Part shown: one piece after another, positions 3,998-44,363 of the stretch
Layout: every line of letters starts with the position of its first letter
Numbering within the stretch: the stretch's first letter is position 1
Source of the DNA: an uncultured Bacilli bacterium
Lineage (GTDB): Bacteria > Bacillota_I > Bacilli_A > RFN20 > DUOF01
DNA length: 64,000 nt
Assembly: GCA_944363575.1 (NCBI GenBank)
Contig: CALVUJ010000021.1
Coordinates: 18,226 to 82,225 of the forward strand
Direction of reading: 5' to 3'
Made by a program: the position numbers and the translations under genes
Notes under the pieces: generated by a model
Told to the model about the DNA's origin: nothing
The model's input: the letters and a program-made list of their open reading frames with translations, nothing else
Database searches by the model: none

Positions 3998-5020
3998 CTA
4001 CCTCAACTCTGTAATAATTTCACATTTACCCTCTTTATATTTAAAAGTTGTAATACTCCCATTAACTAAAGTAATCATTGGTTTAACATGCCCTATATCA
4101 GCATCATATATAATTGGAACTTTTAAATTACCTAGTACTTTTTTTAAAGCTTTTGCATAACTAATTTTAACTGTTTGATTATCGTAAAAAAGAGGCCTAC
4201 CAAAAACAATACCCTTACAATACTTAAAATAACCAGCTTGTTTTAATTGATTTAAACATATCATGAATTGACTAGAAGTCATACTAAATGTTTCTAAATA
4301 CCATACAATACCATCCTTACGATACTTATATATAAACTTCTTTACTTTATCATATTTTGTACCTACTAAAGTATTTATAACATCTTGACACCCACCAATT
4401 AACCTTCCTTTTATCTCCACTTCTTTTTCACCATGTAAAGTTTTCCATTCTACTTTTTGACTATAAGTAGGTAAAGCAAATATATTTTCTTCATTCTTTA
4501 TTTCTTCATATTTTTCAAAACTATGTTGAACTAAGTTTTCTCCTTTTAATAACTTTAAATTATTTATAGCGGATTCACTTAAAGAATCTGTTCCAAACTC
4601 GGTTATGCCATTACTATAAATGCTTGCAACATCACATAATGTAGTTAATAAGAAAGTTATATGAGTCGTGTCGCTGTAGCCCTGTACCCATTTAGGTGTG
4701 CTATTTTTAATTTTAGAATAGTTGATATAAGGAACCGTTTCATATTCAAAATCCCCACCTGCTACGTTAAAAACCATTTTAGATGTTTCATTTAAATAAG
4801 CCTCATTAAACTTATGACCCCTTACTCTAGCAGAAGCACTCCTATGCATACGATACTTTAAGCAATGATCTTGCATTTCTACTTTAAAACCTTCTTTTTC
4901 TAAATTATCAATTGCTTTTAAATATTTTTTTCTTCTATCTAAATCGTTTTTCCTTACCCCATTAGATAAAGCTGTTAAAATGATATTATCTCCTTTTTTT
5001 AAAAATGCTGGGTACTTCAT
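3998..5020 (-). CDS. S66 family peptidase (LD-carboxypeptidase/MccF-like)
   Basis: GG and GYSDTT catalytic Ser region, GRLIGGC, WYLETF, DADIGH motifs. Confidence 0.9.
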   Translation of the reverse strand: MKYPAFLKKGDNIILTALSNGVRKNDLDRRKKYLKAIDNLEKEGFKVEMQDHCLKYRMHRSASARVRGHKFNEAYLNETSKMVFNVAGGDFEYETVPYINYSKIKNSTPKWVQGYSDTTHITFLLTTLCDVASIYSNGITEFGTDSLSESAINNLKLLKGENLVQHSFEKYEEIKNEENIFALPTYSQKVEWKTLHGEKEVEIKGRLIGGCQDVINTLVGTKYDKVKKFIYKYRKDGIVWYLETFSMTSSQFMICLNQLKQAGYFKYCKGIVFGRPLFYDNQTVKISYAKALKKVLGNLKVPIIYDADIGHVKPMITLVNGSITTFKYKEGKCEIITELR

Positions 5021-35473: not shown

Positions 35474-35890
35474 ATGGATAGTAAAATACTAGAAATAAAT
35501 AATTTATCTAAAAGTTTTTTTACTCTTGATGGTGAAATTGAAGTTTTAAAAGATATAGATATGAGTTTAAATGAAGGAGAGAAAATAGCTATCGTAGGTC
35601 CTAGTGGCTGTGGTAAATCGACTATTTTAAATTTGATAAGTGGGTTGATTAGTCCTAGTAAAGGTAATTTTGTTTTAAATGGTGATGTTGGGTACATGTT
35701 TCAAAAAGATAATTTACTAGAGTGGAGAACAATTTATAAAAATATTACAATAGGTTTAGAGATAAAGAAAAAACTTGATAAAGAACAAAAAGAAAAAATT
35801 GATGAGTTATTAAAGAAATATGATTTATATGAATTTAAAAATAGTTACCCATCAGAATTATCTGGTGGTATGAGGCAAAGAGTTGCTTGA
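35474..35890 (+). pseudogene. 5' part of NitT/TauT-type ABC ATPase, interrupted by the island
   Basis: Walker A GPSGCGKS, Q-loop MFQKD, ends at signature ELSGGMRQRVA* at the attL junction. Confidence 0.95.
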
Positions 35891-35938
35891 ATATGCTTAA
35901 GACACTTAAGCAAATAGCGATAAAAGTTGCTTTATAAT
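35882..35938 (+). repeat. 57-bp att-arm motif, copy 1 (attL)
   Basis: GTTGCTTGAATATGCTTAAGACACTTAAGCAAATAGCGATAAAAGTTGCTTTATAAT; 50/57 identical to copy 3. Confidence 0.9.
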
Positions 35939-35954
35939 AAATAATATTAGTAGA

Positions 35955-35996
35955 AAGAAAAATAACTAGAGTTTCAAATTTCTAGTCTTTTTTTAA
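35955..35996. terminator. Hairpin/terminator downstream of the first cargo module
   Basis: ACTAGAGTTT-C-AAATTTCTAGT imperfect hairpin flanked by A and T runs. Confidence 0.5.
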
Positions 35997-36009
35997 TTTT
36001 ATTAATTAT

Positions 36010-36603
36010 TTAATTGAAATTAACTTTTTTCCCTTTTTTATACACTTCTTCTCCAATAAGGAATTTTTTATTATCTAAATCAATATTTAATCTCTTAACT
36101 TCAATATAATGCTTCTTTTCTCCTTTTCTTCCTCTATCAACTCTAATTAAATATTTTTGATATTCTTTTTCTGCTAAAAAATATAAGTTGGAAAATGACT
36201 TTATTTGCTCTGAATCTGCTATTGGCTCAATTCCTGTAAAAATGAAAGAACAAAAATCAAAAACCTTTTCCATTGCATTTCTTTTTGTGGTCTTAGATAT
36301 CTCATATACTACATATGGTTCAGGATACATTTCTTTTAGAGATTGTAGAATGTTTTCATATTTTTTACCGTTTCCTTCTTTTCTTAAGACTAATTCGGTT
36401 AATTCTAATTCAATTATTTAATAAGTAATCAATAGATACATTAAATAGTTTAGATATTTCCCTTAAATTCTCCGCATCTGGCAATCCTGAATCATTCTCC
36501 CATTTAGTTATTGCTTGTCTTGATACATTAATACTATTTTGCTAATTCTTCTTGCGAAAGATCAAATTCCTTTCTAATCTTTCTTATTTTTTTCAAGTTT
36601 CAT
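36010..36603 (-). pseudogene. XRE family HTH regulator pseudogene; the 106-aa ORF 36010-36330 is its C-terminal fragment
   Basis: Fragments MKLE / KIRKIRKEFDLSQEELA / INVSRQAITKWENDSGLPDAENLREISKLFNVSIDYLL / ELELTELVLRK...MYPEPY, joined by about 3 frameshifts. Confidence 0.85.
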
Positions 36604-36707
36604 AACCTTTCACCTCTTTGGCTATATTAAATCATTATTTCTATCTCCTTATCAGCAACTTTACTTTACATTTATGCTACTTATCGTGGCATTTTTAAAT
36701 ATTCTAA

Positions 36708-37435
36708 TTATTCTTTTATTTTCCAATATCCAGTTTTATCAGAACCAACTCTTTCTACAACATTCTCCATTTTTAATTTTCTTAAAACTTTATAGATTGT
36801 AGATTCTGTTCTATTAAGAATACTCGCAAGTTCAGAAGTTGTAATATTAGAATTACTTCTTATTAGAGATATTATCTTTTGTTCAGTAAGATTAAATTTT
36901 ACACCTGAATTTACAATGTTAACAAATAAAGTATCATCAGAAATAGAAAGTCCCTTATCTTTGAATAACATCATTAAATATTCAAATGATAGTTTCTTTT
37001 TATTTGTTTTAATATCTATTAATTTGATATTAGCATCTAATAATTTGGTATGTAACTTTTCTATTTGTTCTTCACTCATACTTCTACAAGTAGAGCCTAT
37101 ACGAATATAACAACCGTTAGAGCTTCTTCCGTATTTTTTAATATAGTAAAGAGCATTTCCTTTTTTCACATTAACATAGATGATTTGTTTGTTTTCAATG
37201 TACTTAGTACCTATTTCAATTAATTCTTGAGGATTAGGCAAAATAGCAGTAGTTATAATATCAGATATCTTCTTTAATGATTCATCTATATTGTCTATAC
37301 CTGTTATAGTTCCATCATCTTCTACCCTATATAAATAGTTCCATCAAAACTATTTAAAAATGCTACGATTTCTTTTTCTAAAGTATCGTTTATTTTCCTT
37401 TTTAATTCGATTGATTCACTTTCACTAAATTTCAT
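36708..37435 (-). pseudogene. AlbA/Schlafen-like DNA-binding protein with a C-terminal wHTH, frameshifted
   Basis: MKFSESESIELKRKINDTLEKEIVAFLNSFDGTIYIG, then a frameshift near 37329 into VEDDGTITGID...ILPNPQE; C-terminal HTH ending VERVGSDKTGYWKI; the usual central domain appears to be missing. Confidence 0.85.
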
Positions 37436-37593
37436 TAAATCATCTCATTGTTACACAATTAGTTTACCATATTTAATAAAATATTAAGCAAAATAATTAA
37501 GCAACTTTAATAATCTATGAAAATTAATTTTATACTATTACGTTTATTTTTAGCTTTTAGACTGCTAATGTAAAATTATAGTTGAAACAATTT

Positions 37594-37650
37594 GTCGGTT
37601 GGATGCCTTTATGGTACCAAGTTAAATGGTGTTGAATATTGCTTTATAAC
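37594..37650 (+). repeat. 57-bp att-arm motif, copy 2 (diverged)
   Basis: GTCGGTTGGATGCCTTTATGGTACCAAGTTAAATGGTGTTGAATATTGCTTTATAAC; ungapped 37/57 to copy 3 and 35/57 to copy 1. Confidence 0.75.
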
Positions 37651-37657
37651 AATAACA

Positions 37658-39361
37658 TTAATGCCTAGCTCCAGGTTTAAAACCTGGGTTTTGTATAGAA
37701 CTACTAGCACCCACTGATGTAATTGTAGAATTTACCGTAAAGGTTGATAATTTTGTTGATCCTCCATAAAGGTTGTAAGTTGTCCCAACTTCTAATTCAG
37801 CGCAAGAAAAGATAATTGATTGTGCTGATTTAGTTAATGTATAAGATAATATTTCATTGTCATCAGAATCCGTTAGCGTAATTATTGTTCCTGCACTAAT
37901 TAAATTTTTGTGGGCAAAGGAAACAACATTTTGATTTGAATTTGAAGCAGGAGTTTCTACCATCCCTAGTGCACCAGAAGCAAACACAGTTCAACCATTA
38001 ACAATAATATTACCATCAGCATCTAAAGCAGCATCTGCACCATTTGTGCTGCCAGAAACAAAAAGAGTGCCACCACTTATCAAAATACTTCCATTACTAT
38101 CAACGCCATCTCCATTTGCATTAACACTAATTGTTGCTCCACTTATTATAATATGACAGTTATTATTAGCTACATTTATTTGAGTTTTTGATCCATCAGC
38201 TGCATTAATACCGTCATCAACTGCTTTTACATTAATTTCTCCACCACTTATTTCTACCTTAGCACTTTCAATACCTTCGTATGAATTATTAATTGTTATA
38301 TTCCCTGCTAATATTTTTAATAATGTTTCTGAATGGATTCCATCATCTCCACTAGTTATATCATAAGTTCCGCCATTAATTACTAGTTCACCATTACTAT
38401 GAATAGCATCATCATTAGCATTAATGGCTGTATTTCCTCCTTCTATATATACTAAATAATCACCACTTATTTCTTTATCTTCACTTCCCCAATCAATTGT
38501 ACCTGCTTTTATACCTTTACCTTCACCATTATCTGAAGATGTTTCTGTAATATTTGTTGGAGCACCTCCGTTAGTTAAAATATTTAAAGTTGATTCTTTA
38601 ATGTATACAAACGTATCTCCCTGTATTCCATCATTTAAGCTATTAATAGTAATATTAGCATTCTCTAAATAAACATAACCACCTGCTTCATAAGAAAAAC
38701 TAGGAACTGTTTCTAAATCATCATAAGCACCTATTTCTGCATGTATTCCATCTTTATTAGCTTCAATATCTAATGTAGCCCCCTTAACTATAACACGATT
38801 TGCTGAAATACCATTTTTAGTTGAACTTATAGTTAGTGAGCCAGGTCCATTAATTATTAAATCGCCTTCACAATCAATAGCGTTAGAACCACTTTCATTA
38901 CTATTTGAAATAGTATTATCACCAATTAAAGTTAATGTGAAAGAAACACTACTTTCAATTACTTTTTTCTCATTTGATAAATTTGCATTATTTAAATACA
39001 ATGTTACTCCTTGACTACTAACTGTTATCTTTTTATTTGTAATAGTAGTACTAACATAATAATTACCTGGACTAGTAATTTCATATTTATCTGTAATTTG
39101 AGTTGCATCACTAGGAACTTGACTCAATGATTCACCTGTTTCTAATACATTATTTAAGGCTTCATTAACACTATTATCTGAGCTTTCTACAGGAGTATCC
39201 GTGGCTACTTTTCCTCCACCTAAGCTATCCCCGGGATTAATAAAAATATCGTCATCATTATTTTTATTAAGACTACACCCACTTAAAATACACATCATAA
39301 ATGCTGCTAAAATTATTCTTTTTTTCATAAAGTTTCTCCTATTCTTTTTTATTTTACTCAC
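37658..39361 (-). pseudogene. Lipoprotein with carbohydrate-binding beta-helix domain (Cthe_2159/DUF4353-like), split by one in-frame TGA
   Basis: Lipobox ILSGC; DGI/DAIHS repeats; ORFs 37991-39361 and 37658-37987 are in one frame: GNIIVNG*TVFASGA. Confidence 0.85.
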
Positions 39362-39673
39362 TTTTTCTTAAAAAAAACTTAAAATATATAGATGAAATAA
39401 TTAATTTTTAAAGCAGATTCTCTAATTTTGTTATTAGGTCAATTAAGATGAAGTTTAAAAATTTTATATTCAAAATATAAATGTGTAACAAAAAAATAAA
39501 AAATGTTTCACATTTTAAATAAAAAGCCTGTAATAATTATATGAAATGAATCATTTTAGATTGTTTCGCGTAAAAAGGTCTATATTTCTTTAGATATAGT
39601 TAACTGATTTTTATATTACCTGCATACACCATTTAAAGTTTTCCCATAAACAAGTATAGTACTATTCTAACTT

Positions 39674-39730
39674 GTTGGTTGAATGTGCTTAAGACACTCG
39701 AGCAAACAGCGATAAAAATTGCTTTATAAC
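39674..39730 (+). repeat. 57-bp att-arm motif, copy 3
   Basis: GTTGGTTGAATGTGCTTAAGACACTCGAGCAAACAGCGATAAAAATTGCTTTATAAC; 12 nt from the stop codon of 39743-40579. Confidence 0.9.
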
Positions 39731-39742
39731 ATTTTTATATTA

Positions 39743-40579
39743 TTATAAAGGACGCAAAACTAGTATTTTTAGCGATATTGTTATTTCTTTAATATTTAAT
39801 TTACTTGTTTCAAAATTATGTGTAAGAGGAGTCATTTTTACTATGTCATTAGACAATTCTTTATTGATAGGCATTGTATATTCTAATTTTTTAGTTTCTA
39901 AAATCGTATTATTTTTTTTCAGATTATCTTCAACTAACTTTTCATTATCATACTCTTTGTGTCCTAATTCCCGTCTTATTTCTTTGAGATAATTTGCTGT
40001 AGGCAATACTTTAATTATAATTCCATTTTCTTTTAAAATTCTTTTGCATTCCTTTTTTGATCCAGGAGATAAAAAATCTAATATAACATCAATTGAATTA
40101 TCAACCAATGGAATGTTTTCTACATCAGCAACCAAAGATATAATATCATTATATACATAATCCGAAGATAACTCTATTGCATCTTTTGCTAAATCTATTG
40201 CGCATTTGAATTCTAAACTTAGTTTTTCACATATCTTATTTAAATGAGAACTTTCCCCACTTCCAATATCTAATATTGATGTAGGAATAGAAATATATTT
40301 TCTTATTAAATCAATAATTTCTACATGAATAGAATTATATATTCCGTTGTTTATAACACTTCTTCTAGACACAAACAATTCTTTTGTGTATATTGTCGAA
40401 TTTGGCAAGGAACTTAAGGATGTTAAGCAAAGATAACCTTTTTTATTTATATCAAAGCAGTGGTTATTTTCACAAGTAAAACTAGTATCAACAATTTTTA
40501 AATTTTTCTTACAATGAGGGCATATAAAATTGTCAGAATATTTTTTTAACAACTCAATAATTAGCTCTTTTTTTGACAT
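39743..40579 (-). CDS. RlmA-like 23S rRNA (guanine-N1) methyltransferase
   Basis: Zn finger CPHC...CENNHCFDINKKGY and SAM motif ILDIGSGE. Confidence 0.8.
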   Translation of the reverse strand: MSKKELIIELLKKYSDNFICPHCKKNLKIVDTSFTCENNHCFDINKKGYLCLTSLSSLPNSTIYTKELFVSRRSVINNGIYNSIHVEIIDLIRKYISIPTSILDIGSGESSHLNKICEKLSLEFKCAIDLAKDAIELSSDYVYNDIISLVADVENIPLVDNSIDVILDFLSPGSKKECKRILKENGIIIKVLPTANYLKEIRRELGHKEYDNEKLVEDNLKKNNTILETKKLEYTMPINKELSNDIVKMTPLTHNFETSKLNIKEITISLKILVLRPL

Positions 40580-41030
40580 AGTATCACCCTTTCACAAATA
40601 TATTACACTTAAAAAGTTTTTCATAAATATAGATTTTAGTTCAAATTTACAGGCACAAATTTTAATTTATGATTATCTTACCATTATTTCTCAAAGATAA
40701 ATAATCATCTCCTTGTAATTTATTTAAAATTATACCAAGGATGTTATCATAAACAACATTTATCAATCAATAAAAGATGTGCCTCTTTTTCTAGAACATA
40801 AGGGTATAAATGATTCCGATATACAACCTATGATAGCTTTCAATTCTCCGTTTCTTTCTAAAGCAAATAATTCGTTTTTTTTATTTTCCTATTACCTTCA
40901 GATTAAACCTGTACATTTTTTGCACAAGCTGAGTTTCCATCTAATTGAAAATCATTATCTATAAACATTACTACTTCATATTTACCCCTGCTTTTACTAT
41001 CTATCTCATTAGTATCTACACAAGATTTTT

Positions 41031-42623
41031 CTAAAAATTCCATTTAATTTCAATATTTCTAGAATTTGTTAAAACATCCATTTTTCCTATATAAATCTTA
41101 TCTATAAACTCATCTACAATTATTTTATTTAATTTATTTAAAGAAATATATTTTTCAAAAAGAAGATTCGTCTTTTCTATTGAATAATCTTTCATCTCGT
41201 AAATCTCAATTTTTCTATTTATATTTTTTATTTCTTTAGTTAAATGATTTGATTTATCTAAGTATGAATGAGTTAAATCTTTAAATTGATCAATAGATAT
41301 AAAACCATTTATCCTATCTTCATACAGTATTTTTAAACTATTTTTATTTCTTGCTATTTGTTTTTGTAATTCTTCTTTAGTTTTCTTTAAAGCATTTATT
41401 TTGCTTTTAAAATTATTTGATTTATCTTGAAGGCTATATTTTTCTAATTCTTTTAAATCATAATAATCATTTATCTTTTTATTTATTTCATCTAAAATAA
41501 TACTTTCTAAAACATCATATCTAATACTTTTTTTATTTACACAATCACTATATCCATCCAAATTACTAGAACATACTAGATACTCATGCCTTGCACTATT
41601 TTTCTTTCTTAAATATTTCCCACACTCTTTACAATAAACTTTGCCAGAAAACAAATGCACAACCCCTAAATTTGTTTTAGCTTTAGTTCTTCTTTTCATC
41701 TCAAGTTGTACAGCCTTAAAAGTATCCAGATCAATTATTGCTTCGTGAGTATTTTCTTTTCTAATCCACAAACTTTTATCTTTCTTTTTAACCTTATGAT
41801 TTTTATAACTAACTGTTGTTCTTTTTCCTTGTATTAAATGCCCTAAATATAATTCGTTTGTTAAAATTGTTTTTATCGCATTAGTAGTCCATTTAATACT
41901 CTCTCTATCCCGATTGCTTGTAACGTTAAGTTTGAGGCCTTTTTGATATTTATAAAGAGAAGGACATGGTATTTTCCTATCATTTAAATTTTTTGCCACT
42001 CCCGTTAAACCATATCCTTTTAAATATAACAAATAAATATCTTTTACAACTTCACTAGCAACTGGATCTATGACCAGTTTGTTATTGTTTTCTTTACTTA
42101 CTTCATAGCCATAACTTGCAAATGGAGATATATATTCCCCTTCTCTCATTTTAGCAATAAAAGCACTACGAATATTTTTTGACACATCTTCTAAATACCA
42201 TTCATTTACTAATCCATTTATTTGCCTAGCTTTTTTGTTTCCACTTACACTAGTGTCCGCATTATCTACTATCCCAATAAACCTAATTCCCCACTCAACA
42301 AATTTATTATGCAAGTATCTTTCAATTACTTCCATATCTCTTGAAAACCTTGATTGACTCTTACACATAACAATATCAATCTTTCCTTTTTCACAATCTT
42401 TAATTAACCTTTCAAACTCTGGCCTATATGTTCCTGCTCCTGATAAGTTTTCATCACAATACTCATCAACTAAAATATAGTTAGGATTTTTATTTACTTC
42501 ACTTATTAACATGAGTCTTTGATTTTTAATAGACTCGCTATCATCGCATTTATTCATTTTATCTTCATCTTCATCAGATAATCTAAGATATATACCCACT
42601 CTATAAAACTCTTTTTCACTCAT
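41031..42623 (-). CDS. Large serine recombinase (resolvase + recombinase + zinc-ribbon/coiled-coil)
   Basis: YLRLS catalytic Ser, SIKNQ, KSQSRFSR, YGYE, NELYLG, HEAIID, SGKVYCKECG. Confidence 0.96.
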   Translation of the reverse strand: MSEKEFYRVGIYLRLSDEDEDKMNKCDDSESIKNQRLMLISEVNKNPNYILVDEYCDENLSGAGTYRPEFERLIKDCEKGKIDIVMCKSQSRFSRDMEVIERYLHNKFVEWGIRFIGIVDNADTSVSGNKKARQINGLVNEWYLEDVSKNIRSAFIAKMREGEYISPFASYGYEVSKENNNKLVIDPVASEVVKDIYLLYLKGYGLTGVAKNLNDRKIPCPSLYKYQKGLKLNVTSNRDRESIKWTTNAIKTILTNELYLGHLIQGKRTTVSYKNHKVKKKDKSLWIRKENTHEAIIDLDTFKAVQLEMKRRTKAKTNLGVVHLFSGKVYCKECGKYLRKKNSARHEYLVCSSNLDGYSDCVNKKSIRYDVLESIILDEINKKINDYYDLKELEKYSLQDKSNNFKSKINALKKTKEELQKQIARNKNSLKILYEDRINGFISIDQFKDLTHSYLDKSNHLTKEIKNINRKIEIYEMKDYSIEKTNLLFEKYISLNKLNKIIVDEFIDKIYIGKMDVLTNSRNIEIKWNF

Positions 42624-42652
42624 AACTATTATAACCTATAAGCACTAAGTTC

Positions 42653-42784
42653 TTATAATTCATCTTCTAGTTCCCTTTCTAAAAAACAAATTATTTTATA
42701 TAGTTTTTTATTTATTATTTCTTTTAAATTATTTAATGATAAATTTTTAGTGTAAGAGTGAATCACATTGTACTTTATACCCAT
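42653..42784 (-). CDS. 43-aa ORF directly upstream of the recombinase
   Basis: GAGGATG RBS then MGIKYNVIHSYTKNLSLNNLKENNNKKLYKIICFLERELEDEL; below the ORF-track size cutoff. Confidence 0.5.
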   Translation of the reverse strand: MGIKYNVIHSYTKNLSLNNLKEIINKKLYKIICFLERELEDEL

Positions 42785-42976
42785 AAAAATCATCCTCATT
42801 AGATTATATTAAAAATTTTTTACTTCGTTACTTTTTGCACAAAAAAGCAAGAGCATACTCATCTAAGTATTATAACTAACTAAAATATTATCAACGTTTA
42901 CTAGGTGTTATTCCCTTATCAATTGTTTTAATATTTACTTCTTTAATTATTTCTTTAACAGCTTGTTTTGGTAAAA

Positions 42977-43570
42977 CTACACATTCTTCTTTTTTTTTAT
43001 ATATTGGCTTAAAATATTATCGTTCTTGTCTGGACTTTTATTAATTAAATATGTTTTCCCTTCTGTTTTACATAAAGCTAATTCGTATTGATTTGAATTA
43101 TCATAAACATATGCTCTATCTGCAACTTCAATTACTTTTTCCAATAACCCCATTGATTTATAATAACGAGAAACAATCTTCTCTTCAGGAACATCGTGCC
43201 CACCTTCTTTTACTCTTTTATGTACTCGCTCTATATTAATAGATGGATTTTTCGTTGTAACATAAAAGAGAATAACCTCGTAACCTTTTTGTTTAGCCAA
43301 TTTTAATAATTCTAAATTTCTATCTGTTGAAAGCACTGTCTCAAAAGAAAAATCTTCGCCTTTTTCTATCTTATCATGACGCATTTTTTCGGCATATTGT
43401 GCTGCTATTAAGTTTCTTTCGTTAGGATCTTTAATTACAGCAAGTGAATCTAATCTTGCTATATTATCAGCATTAATGAAAGGAACCTTAAGTTCATTTT
43501 CACTAACAATTTTAGCAAACAAAGTTGACTTTCCACTACCATTTGGCCCCGCAAAACAATAAACTTTCAT
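42977..43570 (-). CDS. Zeta-toxin-like P-loop ATPase/kinase (likely start ATG 43570)
   Basis: FAGPNGSGKST, FINAD, FSFETVLS, RVKEGGHDVPEEKIVSRY. Confidence 0.85.
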   Translation of the reverse strand: MKVYCFAGPNGSGKSTLFAKIVSENELKVPFINADNIARLDSLAVIKDPNERNLIAAQYAEKMRHDKIEKGEDFSFETVLSTDRNLELLKLAKQKGYEVILFYVTTKNPSINIERVHKRVKEGGHDVPEEKIVSRYYKSMGLLEKVIEVADRAYVYDNSNQYELALCKTEGKTYLINKSPDKNDNILSQYIKKKKNV

Positions 43571-43574
43571 CGTT

Positions 43575-43913
43575 TTATCTCCTCTTCTTATCATTAACAA
43601 AAGATTCTAAATCTTCATAGTCTATGTCTAACATTTTATTTATTATATCATCTGCTTCTTTAAAAGAAGGTATTTTTCCTTTACCTAACCCTTCTCCTTG
43701 AATTACATATTCAAGTTTTTTTAATGTTTCTTTATCATTATAAATAACCTTTTTAATAGCTAATGCAACATCCTTTTCTTCACTAGATTCATACATTTTT
43801 AACAAGTAATCTTTCTTTTCTTTTTTTACAAGCAAATATAATAAAGCTAAATTATATACCTTTTTATTTTTTTCTAATTCTCTCATCAAAATATCTATGT
43901 TCATCTTAATCAC
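43575..43913 (-). CDS. Small helical protein, candidate antitoxin partner of the zeta-like gene
   Basis: 112 aa ending 5 nt before the P-loop gene's likely start; role inferred from position. Confidence 0.55.
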   Translation of the reverse strand: MIKMNIDILMRELEKNKKVYNLALLYLLVKKEKKDYLLKMYESSEEKDVALAIKKVIYNDKETLKKLEYVIQGEGLGKGKIPSFKEADDIINKMLDIDYEDLESFVNDKKRR

Positions 43914-43996
43914 CTAAAGTTATTATATCATAATTTATATATCTATTAAAATATTAAATTATAGTCAATTAATTTAATTATGATTTATATATGATG

Positions 43997-44027
43997 GTGT
44001 CTTAAAAATAGTCATCCAGTTGCTTTA
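43997..44027 (+). other. attR of the LSR island
   Basis: GTGTCTTAAAAATAGTCATCCA-GT-TGCTTTA; the left arm is an inverted match (17/22) to the arm at attL. Confidence 0.85.
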
Positions 44028-44363
44028 ATCAGAACACTCGTTTTAAATCCCTCCATTTTATTACTAGATGAACCGTTTAGTGCTTTGGATGCTCAAACAA
44101 AAATAGCAGTAAATGAAGATGTTTATAATATTGTAAATAAAGAAAATAAAAGTGTTATTTTAGTTACTCATGATATTGCTGAAGCTATTGCTTTTTGTGA
44201 TAGAGTAATTGTTTTAACTAAAAGACCTACTTCTATTAAAAATATATATGAAATAAAGTTTGATGATTTAGAAAACAGAACACCTCTTAAAGCACGAAAG
44301 CACGTTTTATTTAAAGATTATTTCGATAAGATTTGGGGTGATTTAGATGAATTCAAAAAGTGA
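44019..44363 (+). pseudogene. 3' part of the interrupted ABC ATPase
   Basis: [28 protein letters not shown] (Walker B, D-loop), LVTHD H-loop; in frame with 35474-35883. Confidence 0.95.

Follow-up and report, generated by a model that had tools for sequence, protein, structure and literature searches.

Several described systems come close to the one considered here. The sites of the A118 / Listeria innocua (LI) prophage serine integrase include a pseudo-palindromic attP of about 50 bp with a 2-bp crossover; an inner recombinase-domain motif occupies the same place in attP and attB, and, by the rule drawn from the LI integrase-attP structure, the outer zinc-ribbon motif of attB is displaced inward by 5 bp (Rutherford et al. 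2013, PMC3783163). The branch of TnpX (Tn4451), TndX (Tn5397) and the recombinase of structure 3g13 comprises large serine recombinases (LSRs) with a DUF4368-like C-terminal tail, which serve small integrative or mobilizable elements and not phages. DUF4368 is present in 63% of the multi-targeting LSR branch versus 0.73% of site-specific LSRs (PMC10083194). In the same study, Durrant et al. (2022) went from island limits to attL and attR and from these to attP and attB, and many diverged LSRs were seen to target one conserved gene. Finally, gene-disrupting mobilizable elements with serine recombinases are known, as is CIME accretion, the tandem accretion of decayed with incoming elements (Guedon et al. 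2017, PMC5704250).

The locus described here lies in a stretch of 64 kb (the window, by which we mean the whole of the analysed DNA), of chicken-gut metagenome origin and with a G+C content of about 27%. It has something in common with each of the above systems. Its reconstructed sites share the layout of the A118/LI sites, both in the pseudo-palindromic attP with a 2-bp crossover and in the placement of the inner and outer motifs, but the motif sequences are unrelated, the protein is only a distant relative (no LI chain is found among the PDB matches at E≤1e-3), and the window sites are predictions from sequence. The TnpX/TndX branch supplies the best solved-structure matches to the catalytic domain, and the window integrase resembles it in a weakly matched DUF4368-like C-terminal tail and in the kind of element served. 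Unlike the mostly multi-targeting DUF4368 clade (PMC10083194), however, the window family is site-specific, with 11 of 12 clusters in one ABC codon and GT as the core; integration at many targets, the hallmark of the TndX-like clade, was not seen in the 12 sampled clusters. As in the sets of Durrant et al., the att sites follow from the island limits, and diverged LSRs target one conserved gene. Tandem left ends and decayed cargo are reminiscent of the gene-disrupting, accreting elements (PMC5704250), although the window island has no relaxase and the second half-site to be expected at its internal junctions is missing. A literature search found no published description of the att site of this family. 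Its att core strings were not found in the portion of the supplementary text of PMC10083194 covered by a limited check; they may already be listed there.

The island spans positions 35882-44018 (8,137 bp) and splits the gene of an ABC-transporter ATPase (Table 1). The 5' fragment of this gene ends in ...LSGGMRQRVA, followed by an island-derived TGA. Once rejoined, the two fragments encode a protein of 250 aa with one unbroken model match (6-225) that spans the joint; the models matched are of the nitrate/taurine/SaoA type. A 7-bp direct repeat, GTTGCTT, is present at both island ends (35882-35888 and 44019-44025). All island genes are on the minus strand, opposite to the target ABC gene, and domain and family searches revealed no phage, relaxase or conjugation genes among the island ORFs.

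Table 1. Features of the island, its predicted attachment sites and the interrupted gene (positions in the window)
Feature	Position	Strand	Basis
ABC ATPase gene, 5' fragment	35474-35887	+	ORF list; Pfam ABC_tran residues 25-138
Predicted B half-site of attB (left half of attL)	35860-35881	+	35.2 bits on relatives-only B-arm profile; top 0.02% of GT-anchored sites
Predicted GT crossover dinucleotide at attL	35882-35883	+	Sole symmetry centre; nine-element identity-block intersection
56-nt repeat copy 1 (GT + P' half-site + 32-nt extension)	35882-35937	+	Repeat search, family D1; reference copy
Predicted P' half-site of attP (right half of attL)	35884-35905	+	24.9 bits on relatives-only half-site profile
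Orphan ORF	36010-36330	-	ORF list
AlbA_2/HTH gene, frameshifted	36708-37435	-	ORF list, domain match
56-nt repeat copy 2, with degenerate orphan P' half-site (37596-37617)	37594-37649	+	38/56 matches to copies 1 and 3
Cthe_2159-domain gene, lipoprotein-like, two ORFs (37991-39361, 37658-37987)	37658-39361	-	ORF list, domain match
56-nt repeat copy 3, with intact orphan P' half-site (39676-39697)	39674-39729	+	50/56 identical to copy 1
RlmA-like 23S rRNA guanine-N1 methyltransferase	39743-40579	-	Family models
LSR (integrase), 530 aa, intact ORF	41031-42623	-	Pfam, PHROG and PDB matches
Zeta-toxin/AAA_33-like kinase	42977-43600	-	ORF list, domain matches
112-aa ORF upstream of kinase	43575-43913	-	ORF list; 26-nt overlap with kinase
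Predicted P half-site of attP (left half of attR)	43997-44018	+	20.6 bits on relatives-only half-site profile
Predicted GT crossover dinucleotide at attR	44019-44020	+	Symmetry; nine-element identity-block intersection
ABC ATPase gene, 3' fragment, begins VALIRTLVLNPSILLLDEPFSALD...	44019-44363	+	Translation; continuity with 5' fragment
Predicted B' half-site of attB (right half of attR)	44021-44042	+	26.3 bits on relatives' B'-arm profile; 0 GT-anchored null sites as high

The integrase matches its Pfam domains at near full length (Resolvase, 3-144 of 145; PF07508, Recombinase, 2-102 of 102; PF13408, Zn_ribbon_recom, 1-58 of 58). Its catalytic Ser16, located in YLRLS, aligns with the RVS serine of 3g13. 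The match to a PHROG integrase reaches 5.8e-100, and among solved structures the relatives of the catalytic domain are 3g13 (a recombinase of a C. difficile conjugative transposon; 3.3e-14), TnpX (2mhc; 1e-8) and TP901-1 (3bvp). In the window integrase the DUF4368 match is weak, at 22.2 bits versus a cut-off of 25 bits; precomputed matches to PF14287 (DUF4368) are found in most of its relatives. The gene is inverted with respect to all 12 of the 12 sampled clusters of relatives, in which the integrase is co-oriented with the target gene. Signatures of the arms, common with loci L045 and L047, suggest that the att arms kept the family orientation and that the rearrangement affected the island interior. 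Plausible breakpoints showed no inverted repeats. One inversion event, with one end at the integrase stop codon, was also considered, but beyond the P arm there is only AT-rich spacer homology, too weak to call. No directionality factor could be identified among the island ORFs.

Relatives of the element were collected as 68 loci, by a scan of species-representative genomes and by protein-neighbour look-ups. The integrase family comprises 3,693 proteins at E≤1e-20, and the best 120 of these are 63-77% identical to the window integrase, with the exception of one 82%-identical fragment. In 11 of the 12 sampled integrase clusters (56-77% identical), the insertion point is one and the same codon in the ABC ATPase orthologue, and the islands of the relatives end in the same half-site consensus as the window island. 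Since many of these elements carry a Mob_Pre relaxase, the family is one of integrative mobilizable elements. The distance from the end of the integrase gene to the P arm downstream of it ranges in the relatives from 0 to about 1.5 kb, and in several of them it is 0-25 nt. The remaining cluster, whose integrase is 64% identical to that of the window, resides inside a cupin-domain gene (L067 and L068, 2511-12617). The site in the cupin gene is attB-like: it has a GT core, and both of its halves resemble the family B' half-site (top 0.04% and top 1%). The cupin-gene insertion is a natural retargeting event.

Two further observations concern individual relatives. In another gut genome (L063, 12772-15757; L066, 2827-5812) the same ABC gene is interrupted twice, once at the family site and again about 50 codons downstream. 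The second element there has an unrelated serine recombinase (27% identical) in the opposite orientation. The ABC gene is a recurrent landing site. Loci L057 and L058 are contigs with an identical integrase, and over 8 kb their sequences agree at 99.8%. The divergence begins some 150 bp in from the left end (about 4200-4355), with the P' arm and the ABC fragment absent from one of the two; it represents either a mosaic element or a chimeric assembly.

The island ends supply both parental sites. The P arm is GTGTCTTAAAAATAGTCATCCA (43997-44018), GT with the P' arm is TGCTTGAATATGCTTAAGACAC (35882-35905), and attB is reconstructed as ATCTGGTGGTATGAGGCAAAGA-GT-TGCTTTAATCAGAACACTCGTT. The initial annotation had described the joined ends as a 46-bp GT-centred attP, and this description holds: the strings it quoted are present at these positions, the outer 9-bp inverted repeats are perfect, and 17 of the 22 positions are symmetric. 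A symmetry of 17 is reached only with GT at the centre, compared with 4-9 at the 12 neighbouring centres tried, and random joins of window DNA gave at least 17 symmetric positions in 1.5e-5 of trials. The string GTGTCTTAA has exactly three occurrences in the 64 kb, all of them at the island half-sites in question.

Placing the crossover required the relatives. Within the window, attL and attR are identical over 8 bp (AGTTGCTT), and because the end repeat or identity block spans 7-8 bp, the window alone cannot place it. The identity blocks in eight other elements are CAAAGAGTTGC, AGTTG, AGT, AGT, CAAAGAGTT, GTTG, AGAGT and AGTT. Across all nine elements, GT is the only dinucleotide common to the attL/attR identity blocks, and it is also the symmetry centre. 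The nine-element comparison and the symmetry thus agree with the central dinucleotide that had been proposed from the window, and the prediction that GT is the crossover dinucleotide has strong comparative support.

The half-sites themselves are well defined within the family. The consensus of 20 half-sites is GTGTCTTnAnnAYATTCAaaSA, with invariant T-21, G-20, A-14, A-9, C-6 and A-1; the P arm of the window carries G at -8, a near-invariant position at which 19 of 20 family half-sites have T. On a profile made from the relatives only, the three half-sites of the window rank first in the 64 kb with 24.9, 23.2 and 20.6 bits, compared with maxima of 11.6-14.0 bits in the shuffled window. The reconstructed attP sites of the relatives are symmetric at 15-21 of 22 positions.

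Two motifs can be distinguished in these half-sites, an inner one, ATTCA..SA, common to attP and attB, and an outer one, GTGTCTT. The inner 9 columns of the attP profile fit most attB half-sites in register, 15 of the 18 having positive scores. For the outer 9 columns, the best fit to the 18 attB half-sites comes with a move of +5 bp toward the centre, at a mean of 1.3 bits versus -9.4 to -21.1 at the other 14 shifts. Of the two arms, B' fits strongly at the +5 shift (6.9) and B weakly (-4.3, which is still the best shift for B); the B' half-site of the window carries the outer motif at this shift. P-type and B-type half-sites can be told apart because the outer motif of attB sits 5 bp nearer the centre. 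With the outer motif at the +5 shift, the symmetry and the GT core, the att pair satisfies all the tests of an LSR site that sequence allows. The proposal of a complete LSR/attP/attB set is borne out at this level, by an intact LSR at 41031-42623 and by reconstructed sites that appear canonical.

The left end of the island is part of a wider pattern. GT, the P' half-site and a 32-nt extension together form a 56-nt direct repeat that is present in three P'-bearing copies, all pointing the same way; the rightmost module holds the only LSR. Copy 3 is 89% and copy 2 is 63% identical to copy 1; copy 2 is a clear top outlier, with 38 of 56 matches compared with 34 for the next best among about 128,000 window positions. 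The P' half-site of copy 3 scores 23.2 bits on the relatives-only profile. On the P-arm/half-site profile, the right arm of copy 3 has 33.9 bits and that of copy 2 has 2.4 bits (top 0.03%).

The same does not apply to the left arms of the two internal copies. Against the P-arm profile they score -36.9 bits (37594) and -31.9 bits (39674). If one indel is allowed, they fall at the 76th (37594) and 69th (39674) percentile of the GT-anchored null, and their inner 12 nt are at the 44th and 51st percentile; against the attB profiles the best p is 0.04-0.09. Decayed P arms could be dismissed, as the scores on the P-arm profile are at null level even when gapped, and so could pseudo-attB halves, for which the attB-profile p is no better than 0.04-0.09. 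Kinship of the left flanks of copies 2 and 3 with each other or with the attR flank was likewise rejected, the sequences being unrelated. No reciprocal partner junctions of the form P-GT-Y were found. Of the GT sites in the window, 10.8% have the left triplet [CT]A[AT], and 40 show the full core pattern quoted in the initial annotation. Since three junctions share the P' arm and the internal left arms are null-like, there is no symmetric core in four, contrary to what had been claimed: the internal left halves look like random GT-flanking DNA, and the triplet is both common and chosen post hoc. Nor could we uphold the related claim that the two internal copies are hybrid recombination junctions, for they carry only a P' half-site and their left partners are neither P-type nor B-type. 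The P-core-P' junction that tandem accretion would lead one to expect was also absent from both internal copies. Among the 68 related loci none has extra internal half-sites, and the 32-nt extension is absent from those relatives whose left ends were inspected.

The extension has several features of its own. In copies 1 and 3 (35906-35937 and 39698-39729) it contains a conserved inverted repeat, AAGCAA-N13-TTGCTT, and ends in TTGCTTTATAA. In copy 1 it includes AGTTGCTTTA, identical to the attB core, and a palindrome of the same copy, GCTTAAGACACTTAAGC, overlaps the outer motif. These features could be an accessory protein site or the fossil of an older junction. Elsewhere in the island, a fourth P-like 22-mer, TTTTCTTCACTAGATTCATACA, is found at 43774-43795. 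It scores 15.9 bits versus a shuffle maximum of 14.0, lies inside the intact 112-aa ORF and is followed by TT instead of GT; this likeness is probably due to chance.

The cargo of the island is partly decayed, and none of it is shared with the islands of the relatives at 58 related loci. The AlbA_2/HTH gene is in pieces in different frames, a 37-aa N-terminal piece (37322-37435) and a 177-aa ORF with a TTG start (36708-37241). A terminator-like hairpin is located at 37670-37688 on the plus strand, inside the second Cthe_2159 ORF. For orf106, which adjoins the repeats, no homologue was found. The methyltransferase scores 128.8 bits with RlmA(I) and 49-79 bits with Erm(32)/ChrB/MyrA-type models of tylosin-class resistance, all far below the curated cut-offs. 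Its nearest homologues are 52% identical and occur in chromosomal contexts without att sites. A mobile copy of such a methyltransferase in a poultry gut organism may be relevant to macrolide resistance. A leader peptide upstream of this gene was ruled out, as a Shine-Dalgarno-like AAGGAG directly abuts the ATG. The stretch 40692-40733, which is upstream of the methyltransferase and contains AAGGAG, also occurs in a second context outside the window, in the source run and two others. The kinase and the 112-aa ORF (43575-43913), the latter without a family match, stand beside the integrase and look like a toxin-antitoxin addiction pair.

How did this composite arise? The account that we favour, and consider probable as a whole, is that of an LSR element integrated by attP x attB recombination at GT, with the internal copies as relics. 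The element would have entered the ABC ATPase gene just after the LSGGMRQRVA signature, with strand exchange at GT and, because GT is non-palindromic, in a fixed orientation. The orphan P' copies would be relics of earlier related elements that had accreted at the same site and subsequently lost their P arm and integrase. One deletion could remove both, because in the relatives the integrase usually lies within about 1.5 kb upstream of the P arm. Given that the homology breaks exactly at GT, the loss may itself have been recombinase-mediated, with an internal site recombining with a weak pseudo-site; the sharpness of this break is partly forced, since the left flank of copy 1 is host DNA. Some features are at odds with the simplest versions of this history. 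The middle copy (37594) is the most decayed, which no simple order of events predicts, and the internal junctions expected from accretion, P-GT-P', are not matched by the observed left arms, even with one indel; nor are these arms B-like, as a pseudo-attB would be. The inverted integrase gene, the altered near-invariant position of the P arm, the missing reciprocal junctions and the lack of extra internal half-sites at the 68 related loci also speak against it.

As originally proposed, the internal copies would be genuine hybrid junctions made by the integrase, sharing a symmetric CAA-GT-TTG core with attL and attR; on such a reading the island would be an array of three site-specifically joined units. 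The P' homology begins exactly at GT in both copies, with T at -1 compared with A in 20 of 20 family half-sites. The copies also share one orientation, each lies at the 3' end of a gene module, and the left arm at 37594 (X2) reads CAA at -6..-4, as do 2% of GT sites; in addition, relaxed targeting and RDF-independent excision are known for the DUF4368/TnpX-like branch, in which the integrase is placed. We nevertheless regard this possibility as unlikely, because the left arms are random-like on P-type, B-type and inner-motif profiles alike, the triplet pattern is common and was recognized post hoc, reciprocal P-GT-Y junctions are absent, and the only extra P-like 22-mer (43774-43795) precedes TT inside an intact ORF. 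The break at GT carries less weight than it might seem to, being partly forced by the host DNA to the left of copy 1. A variation on this theme, which strikes us as distinctly improbable, takes the orphan X-GT-P' junctions for integrase products in a cassette-like array built with half-cognate sites. Within a tandem array, an internal site of attP type would have recombined in cis with weak pseudo-sites, deleting the neighbouring P arm and the integrase; alternatively, modules devoid of an LSR and having only a P' half-site would have been captured stepwise.

Explanations that do not involve the integrase are harder still to accept. A regulatory role of the 56-nt repeat, or one as a terminator or small RNA, with an incidental att likeness, might be suggested by the position of each copy, 8-72 nt downstream of a minus-strand gene, as well as by the inverted repeat AAGCAA...TTGCTT of the extension and the palindrome GCTTAAGACACTTAAGC of copy 1. 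Yet folding gives z-scores of -0.9, -0.3 and +0.5, the repeats have neither an Rfam match at E≤1 nor a terminator-like site, and on a half-site profile derived from other genomes the first 24 nt reach 24.9 bits in copy 1 and 23.2 bits in copy 3, which makes such a role very improbable. We give even less credence to the idea that the composite, with its three left ends and inverted integrase, is the product of metagenome mis-assembly. The source run does contain the 42-nt stretch 40692-40733, which lies between the methyltransferase and integrase modules, in another context as well and at comparable depth, which implies a branch in the assembly graph, but a single 5,911-bp unitig spans attL and both internal copies, a single 3,241-bp unitig connects the 5' end of the integrase gene with the P arm and attR, and contigs from other studies span the 39674 junction with zero mismatches. 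The path represented by the window remains, because the second context of the 42-nt stretch is contiguous on both sides in three runs.

We also looked for other forms of the element by comparing the contigs of eight public runs with the island. Neither an excised circle nor an empty site was found in the contigs of these runs, only the integrated form and the intact ABC homologues of other organisms. The comparison used assembled contigs only. Depth was about 10 for the source run and lower for the others, and the power for rare forms is low because assembled contigs at such depth or less drop rare variants. A search for an empty site of the same strain, by way of the exact permease protein, returned only the source sample. 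In viral and metagenome collections there were zero matches to the intact attP and zero to other copies of the extension of the 56-nt repeat.

Overall, the window island is an ordinary further LSR element: the logic of its reconstruction is routine, and the understanding of serine integrases does not change. What it offers, from an uncultured chicken-gut bacterium of low G+C content, is a candidate triple of integrase, attP and attB with well-defined limits. Together, the integrase, attP and attB are a reasonable candidate set for engineering, and for the orthogonal toolbox in particular, because the crossover and the half-site consensus rest on nine independent natural integrations. The triple belongs to a large gut-associated LSR family whose DUF4368 tail is otherwise tied to promiscuous targeting, and yet the family homes to one ABC-signature codon. 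The retargeted sub-lineage in the cupin gene could help to dissect how integrase specificity is determined.
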